From: a virus
Lineage: Duplodnaviria; Heunggongvirae; Uroviricota; Caudoviricetes
Length of the DNA: 64,000 nt
Strand: one strand, 5' to 3'
Virus record (IMG/VR): IMGVR_UViG_3300045988_156524
Below are positions 1 to 10,032 of this stretch, piece after piece. Position 1 is the first letter of the stretch, and each line of letters opens with the position of its first letter. The position numbers and the translations under genes were made by a program. The notes beneath the pieces were generated by a model that had not been told where the DNA came from, ran no database searches, and saw only the letters and a program-made list of their open reading frames with translations.

Positions 1-119
1 CTTTTCAGAAGAAAATGCTGCACCATTGCATTTCAGCCACCCCGTTGGCGGTGTGGCTGAGGGCCATGGAATAGGTACACCAACGGGCAGCGCCGAGCCT
101 TCCCCTAAACCAACGTTTT
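1..119. repeat. Direct repeat copy 1 (about 118 bp, 6 mismatches versus 440-558); carries the 5' end of a minus-strand tail-fibre cassette and ends in a cix-like site
   Basis: Read directly: 1-119 aligns base-for-base with 440-558 in the same orientation. Confidence 0.85.
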
Positions 120-129
120 TATGCCGCCC
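1..129 (-). CDS. Tail-fibre variable cassette, 5' end only (continues past window start); begins GRHKNVGLGEGSALPVG
   Basis: Minus-strand frame open from 129 down to position 1; near-identical to the start of the cassette at 441-556. Confidence 0.4.
100..125. other. cix-like crossover site for the Cin-family invertase (12-2-12 layout, core AA at 112-113)
   Basis: TTCCCCTAAACC-AA-CGTTTTTATGCC resembles hix/gix half-sites (TT....AAAACC); sits at a cassette junction. Confidence 0.55.
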
Positions 130-556
130 TTACGATGTAATTAAATGCGATATTTCGCGGCCTGACAGCAACAAAATTTATACCATCACCTACAGAGTTA
201 CTGGTGAAATTAAATCGTGAAAATCCTGGCTGATTTCCGACGATGCCATCATGAAAATTAATTGCGTGCCCTGCACCATCGCCTATATTTCCGGCACGAT
301 GAGAAAAGTTTGTAGCCTCTTGGCTGCTTAATAATGCTCGCCGATTGTCCACACCTCGTCCATCATCCCAACCTCGAATAAATTCGCCCCGTAGATCCGG
401 CAATTTATTAGTGGGGTAAACCTTTGCCAGATTTGGGTACTTTTCAGAAGAAAATGCTGCTCCGTTACATTTCAGCCACCCCGTTGGTGGTGTGGCGGAG
501 GGCCATGGAACAGGTACACCAACGGGCAGCGCCGAGCCTTCCCCTAAACCAACGTT
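119..556 (-). CDS. Promoterless tail-fibre C-terminal variable cassette (Sv-like, 145 codons) with tail-collar motif LPDLRGEFIRGWDDGRGVD
   Basis: Minus-strand frame open 556 to 122, stop 119-121; PWPSATPPTGW and LPDLRGEF motifs; no ATG at the 5' end (track ORF 119-403 starts on TTG). Confidence 0.6.
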   Translation of the reverse strand, partial: NVGLGEGSALPVGVPVPWPSATPPTGWLKCNGAAFSSEKYPNLAKVYPTNKLPDLRGEFIRGWDDGRGVDNRRALLSSQEATNFSHRAGNIGDGAGHAINFHDGIVGNQPGFSRFNFTSNSVGDGINFVAVRPRNIAFNYIVRAA

Positions 557-558
557 TT
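440..558. repeat. Direct repeat copy 2 (partner of 1-119)
   Basis: Read directly; about 95% identical to copy 1. Confidence 0.85.
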
Positions 559-564
559 AGTCTT
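539..564. other. cix-like crossover site immediately upstream of cin (core AA at 551-552)
   Basis: TTCCCCTAAACC-AA-CGTTTTAGTCTT; left half identical to site at 100-125, right half differs. Confidence 0.55.
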
Positions 565-618: not shown

Positions 619-1191
619 ATGCAAATTGGCTACATTCGTGTGTCAACAAATGACCAAAACACAGATTTACAAAGAAATGCACTGAACTGCGCAGGATGTG
701 AACTGATTTTTGAAGATAAAATAAGCGGAACAAAGTCAGCCAGACCAGGCTTGAAAAAGCTGCTCAGAACGTTATCAGAAGGAGATACGCTGGTTGTCTG
801 GAAGCTGGATAGGCTTGGCAGAAGTATGAAACACCTTATCACGCTTATAGAGGAGTTGCGGGAAAAAGGTGTTAATTTCCGTAGTCTGACAGACAGTATT
901 GACACATCAACACCCATGGGGCGTTTCTTTTTTCATGTCATGGGTGCTTTAGCAGAAATGGAACGTGAATTAATTGTTGAGAGAACACTGGCCGGACTGG
1001 CAGCTGCACGCGAACAGGGACGCATTGGCGGACGTCGCCCGAAGTTGACAAAAGAACAACATGAGCAAATAGCGAGGTTGATCGAAAATGGCTACAGCAG
1101 GAAACAGTTGGCAATTATTTACGATATCGGTGTATCGACGATTTATCGTTATCATCCTGTAGAGAAGCGCCAAACTCAATCTGAGCTGTAA
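619..1191 (+). CDS. cin: Serine recombinase, DNA invertase of the Hin/Gin/Cin family (190 aa)
   Basis: MQIGYIRVSTNDQNTDLQ...VVWKLDRLGRS resolvase/invertase signature with catalytic Ser; ATG 619 preceded by AGAGG; next to tail-fibre cassettes. Confidence 0.9.
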   Translation: MQIGYIRVSTNDQNTDLQRNALNCAGCELIFEDKISGTKSARPGLKKLLRTLSEGDTLVVWKLDRLGRSMKHLITLIEELREKGVNFRSLTDSIDTSTPMGRFFFHVMGALAEMERELIVERTLAGLAAAREQGRIGGRRPKLTKEQHEQIARLIENGYSRKQLAIIYDIGVSTIYRYHPVEKRQTQSEL

Positions 1192-1626
1192 TTCTAATGC
1201 CGCGTCGGTGTAATTTATCTTGATAGAATAGGTACATTTATCGCGCGGCACATCAATTCGATGTATCTAGCGCCTGCTGACCGCTAATGAAAACTGTTCT
1301 CGAAATGTTGTCCCTAGTCCGAGACTAGGGTATCACCTCTGGAAAGCATACGCAGAACCTTTTTTAACCCAGGGTGCCCAGCTTTTTTGCTGCTCGCCTT
1401 ATTCGCAAAAATTAGCTCACATCCTGCGCTTTCAAGTGCTTTTCACTGCATAGCTGTGTTTTGTTCATTTGTCTATATGCGTACATAGCCTATTAGCATA
1501 TTTTCTGCCCACTATCGTTATTTATTGCAAGCTACAGGTTTTAATTAACAAAACCAGTGTGTGTGGAAATCACAAAGTGCATACCGTTCTCAAATGTTGT
1601 TCAACTTACTGTTGTATAGGTAAAAA

Positions 1627-1890: not shown

Positions 1891-1964
1891 GTCTCTTATG
1901 CAACATAACCGGTTGAGAAGTTACTTTGCATACCATTACCTCCTGACAACGTAGGAGGGAACTT

Positions 1965-3324: not shown

Positions 3325-5244
3325 ATGGAACAGTTCAATATCAATAAAGGGGTGACGATCAAGCCTGGGCTTGACGTGCTTCCCCCGCCAGTGACTGATG
3401 ATGAATATCGCGCATTAATGGCCGGTGAGGACCGCTATCTGATGACGGAATCCAACACCCTGGAGGAAATCGAGGCTACGTTCTTCTATGACACGCCGAT
3501 CCACTGGTGTGCTACGGATTTACTGGAGGCGATTAGTTCTACTCGTTTGCAGTTACACCGGACCATGCAGGCATTTGTCCGGGCATTGAACCAGAAGCTG
3601 AATGGTACCGGAATCTCTGCGGGGAGTGATAAAACGGGGGATGTGGCCCAGAGCGGCGCGCGCGCGATCGGCGGTGCTGAAATTGGCCGGGCACGTAACG
3701 TTAACGGGCTGCCGGTCCTGCCAGCCATTATTCCGCTCAGTGATGGTCAGACTATCAGCATTCTGTTTCATAGCCCGACAGCGGAAAACCGGATCACCAA
3801 TAGCGATACGCTGGTTGCTTTCCAGTTCTTACTGAATAAAAAAGACGTTACTCACACCGTTGCTCCGATGAGTGGACGTGATATGACGCTGGCGCAGGTC
3901 ACCATGAAACTTGCCAACCTTGCAGAGAAAAACTCGGCAAAATTTCAGCGTGCGCAGAAGAAGAAAAAAGCCCTTGTTGATGAAATAACCCAACTACAGG
4001 CTGACAGTGACCAGAAAGAGGATGCCATGAGCGACCTCGTGGATCAGGTGGCAGCGGTAGAAGGGCAGAAGGTAGATCTGGAGCAGAAAATTAACGCTGT
4101 TGCATCGGAAGCGGATTCTCTTTATGAAGAGAATGAGCGTTTGCAGACGGAGATTGATCAGCTCAATCGCACTGGTGGGCGCGATACCATTGCTCCTGCG
4201 GGGATGACTGGTGGACACTCTCGCGCGATGACGGATCGCCTTGCCAGTATCAAAAATCGTATGCATATGAACGGGGAAGTGACGCTCAGTAATGGTGCAT
4301 CAATGAAGCAATTCATTGAGGACGGCGAAGGGTATATCCAGTTAACCGATTCGGATGGCAGCGTGTACATGATCAAGGCTAAATCCATACAGGGTGTGGA
4401 CATGGCAGATGCGATCGGCAAGCTGTTTAAAGCCTATAAAGCGGGTAATGTATCGGAATACCTGGTCCAACCAGAAGAACATAAACCGGAAAACGTCGAA
4501 CCTGAACCAGCGGAGGATACCGGTAGCTCTTCGCCTGAACCAGAAGTCTCTGTAGGTGCATATCGATATGCCCTGCAAATGCGTCCGGCGGCCCCTGGCG
4601 CAATACCTGAAGGTAACAAAGCAATTCTGCCGCGCCCTGATGAAGGTGACCCGTATTATGAATATGCACGCTACGGCATTGCTACTTACGATACCCCGCT
4701 TTCTGATCAGCAAATGAGTGAGTACGACCTGAAGTTATTGCCTCGCGAGGATTCTTTCGACTTCCTGGCGAAGACACTTACTAATGGTCCGTTTGGCAAA
4801 TATGCACAAAAAGCTCTGGAGCTGGCCACCAGCTCACCAGACGAGTTCCGCGTAATGCTGAAAACTCAGTTTCAAAAAACTTTCCCCAATATTGCGTTTC
4901 CGGGGGGCGCTGGCACCGAGAAAATGGTGCAGAGCATGATCAATGCATTGCAGGCCGAAGTCGGTGAGATTACTCAGCCAGAACCTGCCCCGGCACAGCC
5001 TGATGAAACGGTTAGCGAAGCAGATGCAGAGGCTAATAAAGCCATTGAATATCTCAATAACGTGATGGATATGCAAAGCACTGACATGGCGGAGATCCGT
5101 AACGCCCGGGGTAATGTCCGGGAAGCGATTGCAGCCCTTCAGGCTGCCGGGCGTTTTGAGGAAAACGAAGAGCTGGTTAATGGCGCTGCTCGCCACTTGG
5201 CTGATCTGCTGGTAGCAATCCAGAAAGCGGGGGTAGCGGCATGA
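3325..5244 (+). CDS. darA: Head-internal antirestriction protein DarA-like (639 aa)
   Basis: ATG 3325 with AGGAAA RBS; size and operon position match P1 darA as I recall it. Confidence 0.55.
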   Translation: MEQFNINKGVTIKPGLDVLPPPVTDDEYRALMAGEDRYLMTESNTLEEIEATFFYDTPIHWCATDLLEAISSTRLQLHRTMQAFVRALNQKLNGTGISAGSDKTGDVAQSGARAIGGAEIGRARNVNGLPVLPAIIPLSDGQTISILFHSPTAENRITNSDTLVAFQFLLNKKDVTHTVAPMSGRDMTLAQVTMKLANLAEKNSAKFQRAQKKKKALVDEITQLQADSDQKEDAMSDLVDQVAAVEGQKVDLEQKINAVASEADSLYEENERLQTEIDQLNRTGGRDTIAPAGMTGGHSRAMTDRLASIKNRMHMNGEVTLSNGASMKQFIEDGEGYIQLTDSDGSVYMIKAKSIQGVDMADAIGKLFKAYKAGNVSEYLVQPEEHKPENVEPEPAEDTGSSSPEPEVSVGAYRYALQMRPAAPGAIPEGNKAILPRPDEGDPYYEYARYGIATYDTPLSDQQMSEYDLKLLPREDSFDFLAKTLTNGPFGKYAQKALELATSSPDEFRVMLKTQFQKTFPNIAFPGGAGTEKMVQSMINALQAEVGEITQPEPAPAQPDETVSEADAEANKAIEYLNNVMDMQSTDMAEIRNARGNVREAIAALQAAGRFEENEELVNGAARHLADLLVAIQKAGVAA

Positions 5245-5617: not shown

Positions 5618-8605
5618 ATGAGCTTAAGCGATCAGGTGGTAATGGCCACCAGCATAGAAACGCTGATCGAGCTGCTAAAGAACCTGCCCGGTTATGGGCG
5701 GGTTTCGTATGTGGTGACAGCGAAGGGAGACGAGGTAAAAACAGCGTTTGATATCGTCGATGCCTCAGCTCTTTTGGTATCCAATACTCTGGATGGGAAA
5801 ATTAATCCTGACTATCCCCAGGAACTTCAGCCGCGCGACCGGACCCGCGCATCCAGCCTTCTTCAGGTTAACCAGATATCCAAAGATTTGCGGCCTGCTC
5901 AGCTTACTGATTCCGGTTTATCCAGCCATGGTGCGCCGATAATTGGTGAGGACAATGCCGTTGAGTCAGGTAATGGACGGACCATGGGGATCATCAAAGC
6001 CTATCAGGACGGCAATGCGGATCGGTATCGTGAGTACCTGATTGATCATGCGACCGAATTCGGCATACGACCTGAAAAGGTTGAATCAATGACGGCTCCG
6101 GTACTGGTGCGCCGCCGGTTAACCAAGGTTGACCGCGTTCAGTTTGCCAAGGACTCAAATATTTCTGATCTTCAGGAAATGGCAGCCAGTGAAAAGGCTT
6201 TTGTTGATGCCGACAGCATAACACCGGCGATGATGGCGCTTTTTAACCCGTCAGAAAGCGGAGATCTGCTTAGCCGCAGTAATGACGCGTTTATTCGCGG
6301 ATTTATGACGCAAGTTGGTGCCACACAGGCGGCTGGCCTTGTAACGGAAGATGGGCGACCAACGCGGCAACTTGTTGACCGTATACAAAACGCGATCTTT
6401 GCCAAGGCATATAAGGATGCGCGCCTGGTAAGGATGGTTGCAGAAGAACCTGATCCGGATATGCGTAATGTTCTGACGGCGCTTAATGCGGCAGCCAATG
6501 ATTTTGTCCAGATGCAGGCTTTATCAGGAGAAGCGCACAAGCAGGCTGTGACAACTATTGTTGATGGCATTGAGACAGCGGATAGCCTCGATAAAAAGGC
6601 GCTGGCGGCATTGAAAGATGCGGTAGACCTGGTAAGGCAATCGAAGGAGTCAGGCCAGCATATTACCGATGTTATTGCTCAGGGGGATATGTTCAGCGAA
6701 ACGGCCCCGGAAGTGAAAGCACTCGCGTTGTTCATCGTCGCGAATAACCGTAGCGCGAAGCGTATGGCCACCGCCTTTAAGTTGATGGCTCAACGTATCA
6801 ATGATGAGTTACAGCACCAGGGCCAGGCGCTGGGGGATATGTTTGGCGGTGGTGATGTGTCGTTACAGGATATCCTTCGCCAGGTGTCTCAGGAACTGGA
6901 AAACGAAGGCATGCAAGGGATATCCGGCGGTCTTTTCGAGTCCGTTTCCGGCGGTAGTTACAATGGTGTTGCTCCATATACCAGTTTGCTATTACATCGG
7001 GCATCCGGCATCAAAGACATTATTCATCTGATCAGGCTGCTTTCCCGTACAGATCCCCAGGATGAACAGCTTGTACAAGTGCTTGCGCATTTTGTTCGAA
7101 TGCCTGTTGCCGACGTGAAAAAATGGTGCCGATTATTCGGTATCAGCAATTCGTTACTTCGCGGCTTGTTAAATCACGCATCCTCCCTTGGGCGCGATGG
7201 CTTTGACGAGATAGCGCAGGCGATAAAAAACGGAGATATGCCACCAGCTATTGACTGGTTTTCCATTCGCCCAACCAGGGTGAAAGCATTCCTTAGCGCG
7301 GCGCATTCGGCATCACCATTGGCAGAAATGGTTCAGAGGTTGTCGCTCATATTCACAGACCATACCGCGTTGGGTGATCTGACTCTGGACGAGATGAAAG
7401 AAGCCTCCATTCAGTGGGCCGATCAACAAAATGAGGTTAACTATGACTTCTTGCCAGCATTCAGGAAGGCCGTTAGTAAAGCTGATGATGCCCGTGGAAT
7501 TCTGAGGGCATTTAAGGCATTGCAAAGTCAGGTTAATAAACATGTCGGTGATATCGATGGGGTAACGGCGGAAGGCAGGGATATCCTTAAAGAGCACGGC
7601 ATAACGCCAGAGTTTATTGATGAGATCAGGACTGATATGCAGCGTGAGGTCGTATCGTCCCTGCAAATCGTAGCCAGAGCGTTGGCGGATGCTAATCCGA
7701 AGAGTGCGGCCATTGTTAACCGTGTTATTGGTGATATTGAAGCATCGGAGGGCATGGGGGCGCTGAAACTCTTCCTTTCGCGAGCGTTTAATCCTAACGG
7801 CAATATTCTCCCCGGCATTATTGGTGAGGCTAAAAAGTATGTCAGCGAAGAAGAACTTGAGCATCTTGACCAACTACTTAAGCGATTCTCATATAACCCG
7901 CAGACACGCTGGCAAATGAATCAGCAAAGTATGGGTTCGGTCCACGAGAAAGTGTTATCTGCCATGAACAGTGCGATCGCCAACTCATCCGTATCTGAAG
8001 AAAAAGCTCTTGAGTGGGCCGACTCTTTTATCACGGAAGAAGTGGAAGAAGCCCGCGCTGGACAGAATGGTGGGATAGACCTGCGCAAGGAACTTGCTGA
8101 TATTTATCGCCTGACCGGCGGTAAAATTTCGACCTTATCAAAGGTGGTTCACCACCAGGGAAGGGCATATGCAAATATTAATGGTGTTGTTGCTGTCAAT
8201 TTGAACGATGAAAATGCAAGTGCACTGTGGCACGAGCTGGGTCATCATCTTGAGTACAGTAACCCTGGTTTGTTAGAGAAAGCCCGGTCATTCCTGAAGG
8301 CCAATGTTGAAGGGGATAAGCCATCTTTCGTTAATATCGGTGGGCGTGGCAAGCCTGAATGGTGCTTCAGATCTCGATTGAGTAATATTTATATGGCGAA
8401 GGTATACCCGCCAGCCTCAGTAAGTAACACCGGGAAAATTCGGCAGAAATCACCGACTATTTCCAAAACGTCAGCAACGGAAGTATTCTCTATGGCTCTT
8501 CAGTTGTATCATGACAAAGAGGCCGCTGCCGCATCACTGATGAATGGTGACGGATTGCTGGAACTGTTATTAGGTGTGGCAAAGGAGCTAAATAATGCAG
8601 ATTAA
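5618..8605 (+). CDS. ddrB: Large dar-operon protein (995 aa) with an HELGHH zinc-metallopeptidase-like motif
   Basis: ATG 5618; HExxH motif (WHELGHHLEY) near C-terminus; synteny. Confidence 0.5.
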   Translation: MSLSDQVVMATSIETLIELLKNLPGYGRVSYVVTAKGDEVKTAFDIVDASALLVSNTLDGKINPDYPQELQPRDRTRASSLLQVNQISKDLRPAQLTDSGLSSHGAPIIGEDNAVESGNGRTMGIIKAYQDGNADRYREYLIDHATEFGIRPEKVESMTAPVLVRRRLTKVDRVQFAKDSNISDLQEMAASEKAFVDADSITPAMMALFNPSESGDLLSRSNDAFIRGFMTQVGATQAAGLVTEDGRPTRQLVDRIQNAIFAKAYKDARLVRMVAEEPDPDMRNVLTALNAAANDFVQMQALSGEAHKQAVTTIVDGIETADSLDKKALAALKDAVDLVRQSKESGQHITDVIAQGDMFSETAPEVKALALFIVANNRSAKRMATAFKLMAQRINDELQHQGQALGDMFGGGDVSLQDILRQVSQELENEGMQGISGGLFESVSGGSYNGVAPYTSLLLHRASGIKDIIHLIRLLSRTDPQDEQLVQVLAHFVRMPVADVKKWCRLFGISNSLLRGLLNHASSLGRDGFDEIAQAIKNGDMPPAIDWFSIRPTRVKAFLSAAHSASPLAEMVQRLSLIFTDHTALGDLTLDEMKEASIQWADQQNEVNYDFLPAFRKAVSKADDARGILRAFKALQSQVNKHVGDIDGVTAEGRDILKEHGITPEFIDEIRTDMQREVVSSLQIVARALADANPKSAAIVNRVIGDIEASEGMGALKLFLSRAFNPNGNILPGIIGEAKKYVSEEELEHLDQLLKRFSYNPQTRWQMNQQSMGSVHEKVLSAMNSAIANSSVSEEKALEWADSFITEEVEEARAGQNGGIDLRKELADIYRLTGGKISTLSKVVHHQGRAYANINGVVAVNLNDENASALWHELGHHLEYSNPGLLEKARSFLKANVEGDKPSFVNIGGRGKPEWCFRSRLSNIYMAKVYPPASVSNTGKIRQKSPTISKTSATEVFSMALQLYHDKEAAAASLMNGDGLLELLLGVAKELNNAD

Positions 8606-8906
8606 AATCGCAGCGCCATTAGGCGGAGATGCCATTATCGAATTTGATGATAATGAAGAAGTTTCCGGGCGTTTAAGCATTATCTCCGGTGACATTACCG
8701 AGGACATGATCGCTGAAGCCATAGCTGGGGCAAATCCCAATAGCTATATGGGATTCGTTAACACCCTTGATGCTCCCGCAAGTGATGTTCTCCGAACGCT
8801 GCATCTTTACGCTGGCTGGTTTGTTGATTGGCCAGCAGTAGATGGTGGCGATGAGGACGACGACGACGATGATTTTGGTGATCATGTAGACCAGATCGTA
8901 TATTGA
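8595..8906 (+). CDS. Acidic hypothetical protein (103 aa, poly-Asp tail)
   Basis: ATG with AAGGAG RBS, overlaps upstream stop. Confidence 0.4.
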   Translation: MQIKIAAPLGGDAIIEFDDNEEVSGRLSIISGDITEDMIAEAIAGANPNSYMGFVNTLDAPASDVLRTLHLYAGWFVDWPAVDGGDEDDDDDDFGDHVDQIVY

Positions 8907-8936
8907 AGAAATCCCGCCAATTGGCGGGATTTTTAC
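8906..8936. terminator. Bidirectional rho-independent terminator between convergent genes
   Basis: Perfect palindrome AAATCCCGCCAA/TTGGCGGGATTT flanked by T runs on both strands. Confidence 0.7.
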
Positions 8937-8937
8937 C

Positions 8938-10032
8938 TCACGAGAAACTCTTTTCTGATGTCAGCCAACAGTGCTCGTGCATATCTCTTGGTGGTTTTTC
9001 GACAAATGCCTCTTCAGCCACATCCTGCCAGGGGATTTGTTTAGCCCATTCAGTTATAGCGTTATGGTTTGCCGAGAATAACGGTATTGTATAGGCCTTC
9101 AGCCAGTCTAATGTGCTGGAGTTGTGTTTTTGAGCGTGATGTTTCGCATGGTGTTTGGCGATCACGATCGTAGGCACTACCCATTTACTACCGTCAGTCA
9201 TTGTGAAGTGCATATTACGGGGAACAGATGACTTTTCCATCAACTCCCGAATCCCGGGGAATTTCCCCAAGATCAATCGGCGATATTCATCGCTATTGCG
9301 CCCACCAAACTCTTTGGCTTTGAATTCAAGATATGCTTCAGAAACGAGAGGTGAATCCTCTGTGTTTAGAGTTATCGCCGTGAAAAAACCAGCAGGATTG
9401 TTTTTACTATGGGCCAACCGGTGATGCGAATCATAAAAGTACCCTTTCTCGCGTTCCGATGGTTTCGACAGCAACAGCAGGCGCGAGTCATAATTGGTTA
9501 AATTGCCAGTTATCACTGCATGAGCGCGATCGCTGATTTCCGCCGAGTTAATAACGATGAAAAGATCGTGCGGTCCAGTAAAACCAGCCAGAGACTCTTC
9601 GTTATTCAGACAATAGGTTATATAGACGCATCCCCATGTTTCACTGATATGCACCAACCCTTTGTCAGGGTGTATTCTGAAATAATTGCCAAGAAAAGGG
9701 TGTTTTTGGGTAACTCGCTCCCAATAACGGAACATATAGTCAATTATTGTTTTTCGACAATCGTTAATCGCAGGAGAAACAACCACTGTACGGGAACACG
9801 AATACAGTATTGTTTGCAGGATGCTAATCACTGCCACAATAGAGGTTTCCCCAATACCATGTGGTGTGGTGGCAGTGATTTTGGCTCCGGTGTTCTTTAT
9901 CGCGTTAATAATTTTTGCTTGATGAGGTGTTAACTCAATATCAAGCAACTCTTTTGCTGCCAGTTCCCAATTGTCTTTATACCGTTCTATCAGTGCTAAC
10001 CAGGCAGATTCATTCTGTATACGATTAATCAC
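8938..10032 (-). CDS. PacB-like terminase large-subunit paralog, ATPase domain only, Walker motifs degenerate (364 aa)
   Basis: Aligns with PacB at 30474-31958 (shared block LLLLSKP...[11 protein letters not shown]); Walker A GHGTGKS replaced by PHGIGETS, Walker B IIDEAS by VINSAE. Confidence 0.6.
   Translation of the reverse strand: MINRIQNESAWLALIERYKDNWELAAKELLDIELTPHQAKIINAIKNTGAKITATTPHGIGETSIVAVISILQTILYSCSRTVVVSPAINDCRKTIIDYMFRYWERVTQKHPFLGNYFRIHPDKGLVHISETWGCVYITYCLNNEESLAGFTGPHDLFIVINSAEISDRAHAVITGNLTNYDSRLLLLSKPSEREKGYFYDSHHRLAHSKNNPAGFFTAITLNTEDSPLVSEAYLEFKAKEFGGRNSDEYRRLILGKFPGIRELMEKSSVPRNMHFTMTDGSKWVVPTIVIAKHHAKHHAQKHNSSTLDWLKAYTIPLFSANHNAITEWAKQIPWQDVAEEAFVEKPPRDMHEHCWLTSEKSFS

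Follow-up and report, generated by a model that had tools for sequence, protein, structure and literature searches.

p15B, a P1-related plasmid of E. coli 15T-, carries a multiple-inversion system (Min), described by Sandmeier, Iida, Arber et al. in 1990 (PNAS), 1991 (NAR) and 1992 (J Bacteriol). In this system, a 3.5-kb region with six crossover sites reportedly gives rise to 240 isomeric configurations, in which a single tail-fibre gene keeps its constant 5′ part and takes on alternative 3′ ends. The invertase is reportedly akin to that of e14 (Pin), min is reported to have a second, truncated invertase gene beside it, and the fibre reportedly measures 739-762 aa.

Here, we analyzed a tail-fibre cassette at the left end of a 64,000-nucleotide stretch of viral DNA, hereafter the window. 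This cassette is very probably a free unit of a Min-type (p15B-type) multiple-inversion system, by which a P1-like phage-plasmid varies its tail fibre. The identity of the locus with the p15B min region is supported indirectly, by comparisons of sequence. For the invertible segment of plasmid pMCR_SCKP-LL83, a published comparison with the p15B min region gives 99 % identity over 92 % coverage (PMC5786510), and p160070-MCR, an isomer of pMCR_SCKP-LL83, is 98.7 % identical to positions 3-1200 of the window. In addition, the P1 GenBank record cross-references p15B (X62121, locus ECP15BG) for the enhancer, the cin 5′ region/psi-cin, lydC and lydA; these elements are collinear with the window, and the p15B coordinates differ from those of the window by a constant offset of ~5820.

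The T6 cassette, its crossover sites and the Min invertase

The features at the left end of the window are the following.

1..118, minus strand: head (5′ end) of the adjoining silent cassette, cut off by the left edge of the window; encodes (N)VGLGEGSALPVGVPIPWPSATPPTGWLKCNGAAFSSEK
100..125, plus strand: internal 26-bp Min/cix-type crossover site, TTCCCCTAAACC AA CGTTTTTATGCC, with the AA core at 112-113
119..556, minus strand: silent T6 tail-fibre tip segment, a 3′ gene segment without promoter or start codon
539..564, plus strand: outermost crossover site (F), adjoining the invertase gene, TTCCCCTAAACC AA CGTTTTAGTCTT, with the AA core at 551-552
619..1191, plus strand: min, encoding a 190-aa serine DNA invertase (Resolvase and HTH_7 domains)
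637..708, plus strand: probable recombinational enhancer in the 5′ end of min, a homologue by position and sequence
1323..1499, minus strand: psi-invertase (psi-cin), a truncated remnant of the ancestral cin, 59 codons with two in-frame stops

The cassette occupies 145 codons on the minus strand, from 556 to 122, starting with an asparagine codon (554-556) and ending with an alanine codon (122-124) followed by TAA at 119-121. The frame as a whole reads D, stop, NVGLGEGSALPVGV...LPDLRGEFIRGWDDGRGVD...RPRNIAFNYIVRAA, stop; read from 562 downwards, the D and the first stop are followed by NVGLGEGSALPVGVPVPWPSATPPTGWLKCNGAAFSSEKYPNLAKVYPTNKLPDLRGEFIRGWDDGRGVD...RPRNIAFNYIVRAA and the second stop. 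The TAA at 557-559 (minus strand) shuts the frame upstream of the silent cassette, and the part that is transplanted begins at the crossover point 551/552. Pfam analysis revealed a tail-collar domain (Collar PF07484, residues 13-60, E = 1e-14) as the sole domain match, followed by a variable middle of ~70 aa and by the conserved C-terminal strand RPRNIAFNYIVRAA. Cassettes were sorted into types T1-T9 by their variable middles, and this one is of type T6.

Both window sites were compared with cixL and cixR of P1 and with the e14 sites. They display the features of Hin-family sites, namely a length of 26 bp, the conserved half-site TTCYCYNAAACC of 12 bp and the dinucleotide AA as core, and the inner half-site and AA core are common to the window sites, to P1 cix (TTCTCTTAAACCAAGGTATTGGATAA for cixR) and to e14 (TTCTCCCAAACCAACGTTTATGAAAA). 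The inner half-site codes for the residues G-L-G-E of the next cassette. At 100-125, the inner half belongs to the head of the neighbouring cassette, and the outer half contains the T6 stop and its last alanine codon, the TAA lying 6 nt from the crossover core at 112-113. The two sites also close a direct repeat of 119 nt (1-119 versus 440-558, 95 % identical), each copy of which ends in the 26-bp element. The frame, the Pfam match and the site comparison therefore agree with the earlier note, which had described a 145-codon tail-collar cassette with its stop inside a cix-like site.

This arrangement extends beyond T6. The outer half of all internal sites reads CGTTTT(T/C)ATG(CC/TG), the reverse complement of the cassette end ...GCA TAA AAACG, so that a stop inside the site is general across the array rather than special to T6. 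A ...RAA-TAA end abutting the next site was found for the internal cassettes of all seven Min-type loci examined in detail, and the complete site-T6-site-min junction in 41 of 5,426 complete E. coli genomes. In the plasmid p1506-2, the closest relative described below, a 20-nt site pattern occurred five times against none expected from shuffled sequences; the site repeats are not due to chance.

The protein encoded at 619-1191 contains a PF00239 Resolvase domain (E = 2e-51), a PF02796 HTH_7 domain (E = 3e-15) and the catalytic-serine motif YIRVSTNDQ, and it shares 82 % identity with PinE of e14 and 74 % with Cin of P1. Within its gene, positions 637-708 match the annotated P1 cin enhancer at 58 of 72 positions and the same stretch of pin at 62 of 72, and this segment is probably the recombinational enhancer, putatively dependent on Fis. 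Further right, psi-cin is 83 % identical to the N-terminus of Cin, has a conserved upstream region and occupies, relative to the lyd genes, the position of cin in P1. It marks the point at which the Cin module was replaced by the Min module. The region beyond min contains a lydC-like gene, the lydA/lydB holin genes and the hdf-darA-ddrA-ddrB operon, and the backbone of the window is of the P1 type (Punavirus).

As one of two alternatives, the earlier note had offered a recombination site that lies within coding sequence as in shufflons. The first half of this suggestion holds, since coding sequence lies on both sides of the site, and the resemblance to shufflons is functional only, the recombinase being a serine invertase. 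A true shufflon of the R64 kind, with an Rci-type tyrosine recombinase and sfx sites, would likewise show overlapping invertible segments that exchange the C-terminal part of one gene at sites within coding sequence. However, the adjoining recombinase is a Resolvase/HTH_7 serine invertase related to Cin and Pin (74-82 % identity), the crossover sites are of the Hin family (26 bp, AA core), and a homologue of the cin-type enhancer lies in the 5′ end of min. With a serine invertase and Hin-type sites, the Min array belongs to the Hin/Gin/Cin/Pin/Min family and is not a shufflon, and we regard such an origin as next to impossible.

Array architecture and isomers among relatives

Since the window begins inside the invertible region and contains only the two right-most sites of the array, relatives were used to reconstruct the left flank. 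A search of plasmid records with positions 1-1200 yielded 202 matches, 109 of them covering at least 80 % of the query. The best match, p1506-2 (L002), is 99.8 % identical over positions 1-1200, base 1 of the window corresponding to its base 9001. The phage record vB_EcoM-673R5 (L001) was set aside for questions of architecture, its genes being fragmented by frameshifts.

In p1506-2 the array reads Sc-T1+ T2+ tfa- T3- T4- T5- T6- min+. The constant part of S (Sc) runs into site A, which reads TTCCCCCAAACC AA GGTAATCAAGAA on the minus strand and lies inside the codons LDY-LGLGEG; five more sites follow, and site A is separated from site F by 3491 bp (a 3.49-kb region). Besides its six sites and the invertase, the array comprises six collar cassettes, which all end in RPRNIAFNYIVRA(A/D)-stop, and a single Caudo_TAP gene. 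The neighbour that runs off the window at 1-118 is a cassette of type T5 (8605-9105 in p1506-2). The sole tfa gene (Caudo_TAP PF02413, E = 3e-30) belongs to a central double-headed block in which T3 is followed by tfa, the T3 stop overlapping the tfa start (TAATG), and this pair is convergent with T2.

Downstream of T6 come T5, T4 and T3 and only then tfa, ~1.4 kb further to the left. As p1506-2 contains exactly one Caudo_TAP gene, located after T3, no U-like gene follows T6 immediately. A tblastn search with seven Tfa/U proteins detected no Tfa homologue in the whole 64-kb window. The earlier note was thus right that the cassette has neither an assembly gene of its own nor room for one: the next element is another cassette, unlike the Sv-U and Sv′-U′ arrangement of P1, where each variable segment is followed by its own U gene. 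It had further reasoned that its reading would fall if a U-like gene were found directly downstream and the stop proved to be an error; the flank in p1506-2 displays a cassette at this place, and the stop is conserved.

The number of cassettes varies among sister plasmids, which carry 3, 6, 7, 8 or 9 of them, with new tip types. pKFS-B20_2, with three, still keeps a second, e14-like tfa. Judging from the sequences, unequal homologous exchange between the ~200-bp conserved heads in direct repeat would allow such shifts in number.

Min, encoded next door, recombines oppositely oriented sites. The unit of exchange extends from one site centre to the next and comprises the GLGE half-site, the collar, the variable middle, the RAA-stop strand and the outer half-site; because it spans from centre to centre, units are packed head to tail with zero intergenic space. 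Any unit can be moved to the constant 5′ part of S, forming an in-frame fusion (...LDY-LGLGEGS...), while unfused units are silent, since they have neither start codon nor promoter. An array made of one double-headed block and n free units gives (n+1)! x 2 isomers. Exhaustive enumeration of the allowed inversions in the six-site p1506-2 array yielded exactly 240 configurations, as expected for four free units plus the double-headed block (5! x 2).

Isomers were found among the plasmid records. p160070-MCR (L003) and pMCR_SCKP-LL83 (L010) are both 97,393 bp long, with arrays of 4931 bp each, and their flanks are identical (0/2100 and 0/2400 mismatches). Their cassette orders are Sc-T1+ T5+ T2+ tfa- T3- T4- T7- T8- T9- T6- in the former and Sc-T6+ T5+ T4+ T9+ T8+ T7+ T2+ tfa- T3- T1- in the latter, which places these otherwise identical plasmids at least four site-specific inversions apart. 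In two other loci, L005 and L006, the central block is flipped (T3+ tfa+ T2-). At the Sc junction (LDY-LGLGEG), T1 is attached in p1506-2, p160070-MCR and L006, and T6 in pMCR_SCKP-LL83. A synthetic Sc-T6 junction query served only to nominate candidates, as repeats in Sc confounded the counts (every match fell into at least two pieces); pMCR_SCKP-LL83 was one such candidate, and its Sc-T6 fusion was confirmed by inspection. Given this in-frame fusion, T6 is the expressed fibre tip in some isomers. The Min system is active, its isomers occur in nature and the T6 type is used.

The same data bear on whether the cassette could be a decaying, unused remnant, or its stop at 119-121 a sequencing or assembly artefact. 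T6 lies silent beside the invertase in six of the seven Min-type loci compared, as in the window, and the window copy carries two private substitutions, as a remnant might. Against this, the T6 open reading frame is intact in every copy examined except that of the error-ridden phage record L001, its variable core shares ~86 % protein identity with the tail-fibre tips of the sequenced phages mEp043 and 500465-2, the stop inside the site recurs at internal sites of the Min-type loci and in the 41 complete genomes, and T6 is joined in frame to Sc in pMCR_SCKP-LL83. Conservation and the Sc-T6 fusion isomer rule out this hardly credible reading.

Considerably more than a hundred sequenced P1-like plasmids contain a Min locus, and several also carry mcr-1. 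Recent comparative papers on P1-like phage-plasmids name the locus just a "highly variable region", and annotation pipelines label the silent cassettes as independent "phage tail proteins". Recognition of Min arrays, with 240 to ~80,000 isomers, explains differences between assemblies of otherwise identical plasmids and bears on the prediction of host range for resistance-carrying phage-plasmids.

Folding of tips without their own tfa gene

A phmmer search of the PDB with the T6 sequence retrieved a short tail fibre (9cuy, 1.4e-14) and the T4 gp37 tip (2XGF, 1.3e-13), the latter aligning to the collar and, separately, to the C-terminus NIAFNYIVR(L/A)A. An AF2 monomer model, built from a 30-sequence alignment, was confident only at the collar (~10-55) and the last strand; residues 57-126 had pLDDT values below 50, as expected for the middle of an intertwined trimer. 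Foldseek analysis of this model gave 2XGF as the top match, with T4 gp12 also among the best PDB matches. The T6 tip is therefore a collar tip of the T4 gp37/gp12 type, with which it shares the Collar domain (PF07484) and the C-terminal NIAFNYIVR.A strand, and from which it differs by a much shorter variable middle (~70 aa). In T4, gp37 needs gp38 and gp57A, while gp12 needs gp57A (PMC3004832; PMC9608196).

The model was used only to search for an intramolecular chaperone domain and says nothing on Tfa dependence. The earlier note had proposed structure prediction for such a fold; none was found. Examples of built-in chaperones are those of the T5 pb1 fibre and the Peptidase_S74 domain of endosialidase. 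The absence of an adjacent tfa gene is the sole point in favour of a built-in chaperone. The cassette is only 145 aa long and matches Pfam Collar alone, without Peptidase_S74 or a similar family, it ends in a gp37-type strand (NIAFNYIVRAA) without a cleavable domain, and its AF2 model consists of the collar, a low-confidence middle and the C-terminal strand, with gp37 and gp12 tips as the best PDB matches. We consider this explanation extremely improbable.

The earlier note had also recommended a comparison of cassette and U gene content among relatives. Outside Min arrays, T6-type tips were directly followed by their own Caudo_TAP gene in every case examined, namely in the lambdoid phage mEp043, in the P2-like 500465-2, whose tip shares 84-87 % nucleotide identity with T6, and in chromosomal prophages with a classical two-tfa invertible segment. 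T6 in the Min array has lost its cognate chaperone gene. The Tfas of T6-type tips elsewhere share an N-domain (MKPVFD.NGLAT...) unlike that of the Min Tfa; they are 38-52 % identical to the latter overall, and most of the resemblance falls in the C-terminal half. Tfa proteins are described as modular, their variable N-terminal domain attaching to the fibre tip and their conserved C-terminal domain driving trimerisation (PMC3004832; PMC9608196).

The likeliest answer, to which we give about even chances, is that the one TfaE-like protein, encoded in the central block, acts in trans on every tip. Its expression would occur whenever block and S operon point the same way and, in the other orientation, perhaps weakly from the side of the invertase. 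For a shared Tfa speak its essentially single copy per plasmid record (557 places in 537 records), the association of the TfaE-type N-domain with two different tips (the T2-like StfE in e14 and T3 in Min arrays), and the collar and C-terminal strand common to all cassettes. Several observations argue against it. First, tfa is antisense to the S operon in L002, L003, L010 and L011, including L010, where T6 is the expressed tip. Secondly, enumeration of the isomers showed tfa to be antisense in half of them whichever free unit is expressed, and in all of those that express T2. Thirdly, the T6-type tips of mEp043, 500465-2 and the prophages are paired with a Tfa having a different fibre-binding N-domain. 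The P1 late-promoter motif (AAGTTACTT-N4-TACNAT) was found only at LPs and LPdar and nowhere inside the array, and sigma-70-like and terminator-like sites in the array were at or below the expectation from shuffled sequences. The promoter region of psi-cin, which points toward min and the array on the minus strand, could transcribe a minus-oriented tfa.

Alternatively, the free cassettes, T6 included, may fold without a dedicated Tfa, by means of host chaperones or of the shared collar and C-terminal strand, with tfa serving T3 only. This is a real possibility, although we put it at less than even. It agrees with the translational coupling of tfa to T3 alone through the TAATG overlap, with the antisense orientation of tfa in the T6-expressing L010, with the absence of an internal promoter signal in the array and with the N-domain of the Min Tfa, which is not of the type paired with T6-like tips elsewhere; moreover, in T4 a small alteration of gp37 is enough to relieve the need for gp38 (PMC3004832). 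On the other hand, each T6-type tip examined outside Min arrays has its own Caudo_TAP gene, gp37/gp12-like collar tips are documented as chaperone-dependent, and the AF2 monomer model bears no sign of an autonomous folding module. R was considered as a general chaperone and rejected, since recent work describes it as the connector between fibre and baseplate (PMC13172314).

The earlier note had opposed a chaperone acting in trans to a site embedded in coding sequence; these two are not exclusive, and a shared Tfa is compatible with the coding-embedded sites described above. A broader proposition, which we advance only tentatively and think rather unlikely, is that gp37-like tips that are strictly paired with a Tfa elsewhere have been freed here from a cis-encoded chaperone. 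By one route, a TfaE-type generalist would serve at least nine unrelated tip cores, perhaps with transcription entering the array from either side, the retained psi-cin promoter included; by the other, a tip core grafted onto the array-wide collar and C-terminal strand would become chaperone-independent. If either route is true, it would provide a rule for compact, chaperone-free libraries of interchangeable receptor-binding tips. The chaperone question is modest and cleanly testable, and it is relevant to the engineering of compact libraries of such tips.

Relation to other invertible systems

The Min locus shares with P1 Cin and Mu Gin the invertase family, the type of site, a probable enhancer early in the invertase gene and the joining of Sc to alternative Sv parts. 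As in P1, the R gene and the late promoter LPs lie upstream, R being 98.6 % identical. P1 and Mu, however, have two sites and two states, with each Sv followed by its own U or U′, an arrangement from which T6 departs, whereas the Min array has many sites, cassettes of ~145-170 codons and a single Tfa of an unrelated type (24 % identity to P1 U′). The tips also differ, being collar/gp37-like in Min arrays and S-like in P1 and Mu.

A further comparison concerns the Pin P segment of the defective prophage e14 (stfP-tfaP / tfaE-stfE-pinE). Identity is 82 % between Min and PinE, 77.6 % between the Min Tfa and TfaE, and 83 % between T2 and StfE, and the sites are nearly the same. The central double-headed block of Min arrays is an e14-like P segment. 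In contrast to the two-site e14 segment with its pair of tfa genes, this block is flanked on both sides in Min arrays by free units that lack tfa. The second tfa of e14 has been lost from the p1506-2-type block and is still present in that of pKFS-B20_2.

With the R64 shufflon, the locus has in common overlapping inversions, sites within coding sequence and the choice of one C-terminal segment of a surface adhesin. The shufflon relies on the Rci tyrosine recombinase, sfx sites and pilV of the conjugative pilus, in contrast to the serine invertase and phage fibre of the Min array.

The closest match is p15B: a P1-like backbone, an invertase nearer to Pin than to Cin, a psi-invertase beside min and one variable gene with a constant 5′ part and alternative 3′ parts are found in both, and the six-site p1506-2 reproduces the reported six sites in ~3.5 kb and 240 isomers. 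For this six-site version nothing substantive differs, except that the constant part of S is shorter in p1506-2, giving a fibre of 560 aa against the reported 739-762 aa of p15B; sister plasmids with 3, 7, 8 or 9 cassettes and new tip types go beyond it. The observation on T6 is a correct reading of the described p15B-type system and, as such, already known. The architecture of cassettes abutting the sites was described for p15B in 1990-92, so it matters little as a discovery; the packing of tips between sites with a single tfa gene per array has been known since the 1990s, and the T6 finding is real but ordinary.

Natural isomers of the array and divergence of the T6 cassette

The mcr-1 phage-plasmids p160070-MCR and pMCR_SCKP-LL83, of 97,393 bp each, come from different K. 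pneumoniae isolates. Comparison of 4.5 kb of array flanks revealed 0 mismatches on either side, and their nine-cassette arrays lie at least four inversions apart. These two records are natural Min isomers, deposited as separate plasmids.

Two substitutions, G72R and Q86H, set the T6 cassette of the window (119-556, minus strand) apart from the T6 copies of the related loci L002-L006; in these regions the residues of the window cassette read ...VDNRRALL... and ...NFSHRAG... Some T6-like proteins are named 'integrase' in the protein database.

The T4 cassette of pLAO48 (positions 4048-4383 of its locus, L005) carries a frameshift, and in the record of phage vB_EcoM-673R5 many genes are fragmented throughout the region, including the invertase, which is split into 'Hin1' and 'Hin2'. 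This pattern suggests sequencing errors, not biology. In RefSeq plasmid records (e.g. positions 7658-9475 of the p1506-2 locus, L002), pipelines annotate each silent, start-less cassette as an independent 'phage tail protein', with TTG or GTG assigned as the start codon.

P1-related sequences beside the invertase gene

Two P1-related features were identified beyond min, the serine invertase gene:
1323-1499, minus strand, truncated cin-like pseudogene of 59 codons with 2 in-frame stops
1918-1936, plus strand, P1 late-promoter motif of the LPdar type, AAGTTACTTTGCATACCAT, exact match

The pseudogene, oriented toward min and the invertible array, shares 83% amino acid identity with the N-terminus of P1 Cin, and the region upstream of it (to about 1600) matches the promoter region of P1 cin at ~88% identity. 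Homology to P1 stops at the palindrome CCCTAGTCCGAGACTAGGG (1312-1330). The LPdar-type motif precedes the lydA/lydB/darA operon; close to the fibre genes the motif recurs only once, as LPs, which lies upstream of R (position 4356 of the p1506-2 locus), and no P1 late-promoter motif was found inside the invertible array.

Rearranged and minimal arrays

In pS13-1, ISApl1 and mcr-1.1 have inserted at the array's left edge, immediately next to the tail-fibre assembly gene tfa (L004 1-2450). The expression-side part of this array appears to have been replaced, since neither T2 nor the junction with Sc, the constant 5' part of the fibre gene, was found in the stretch examined.

A minimal array was found in pKFS-B20_2:
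L019 3389-7092, three cassettes, Sc-T3 (+), tfa (+) / tfa' (-), Y (-), T6 (-), min

Its two tfa genes form a convergent, e14-like pair, and cassette Y is non-collar. Further upstream, a site at L019 1444 is identical to P1 cixR. In form, the pKFS-B20_2 array seems to be intermediate, falling between the two-site Pin/Cin type (e14 and P1) and the six-site Min type.
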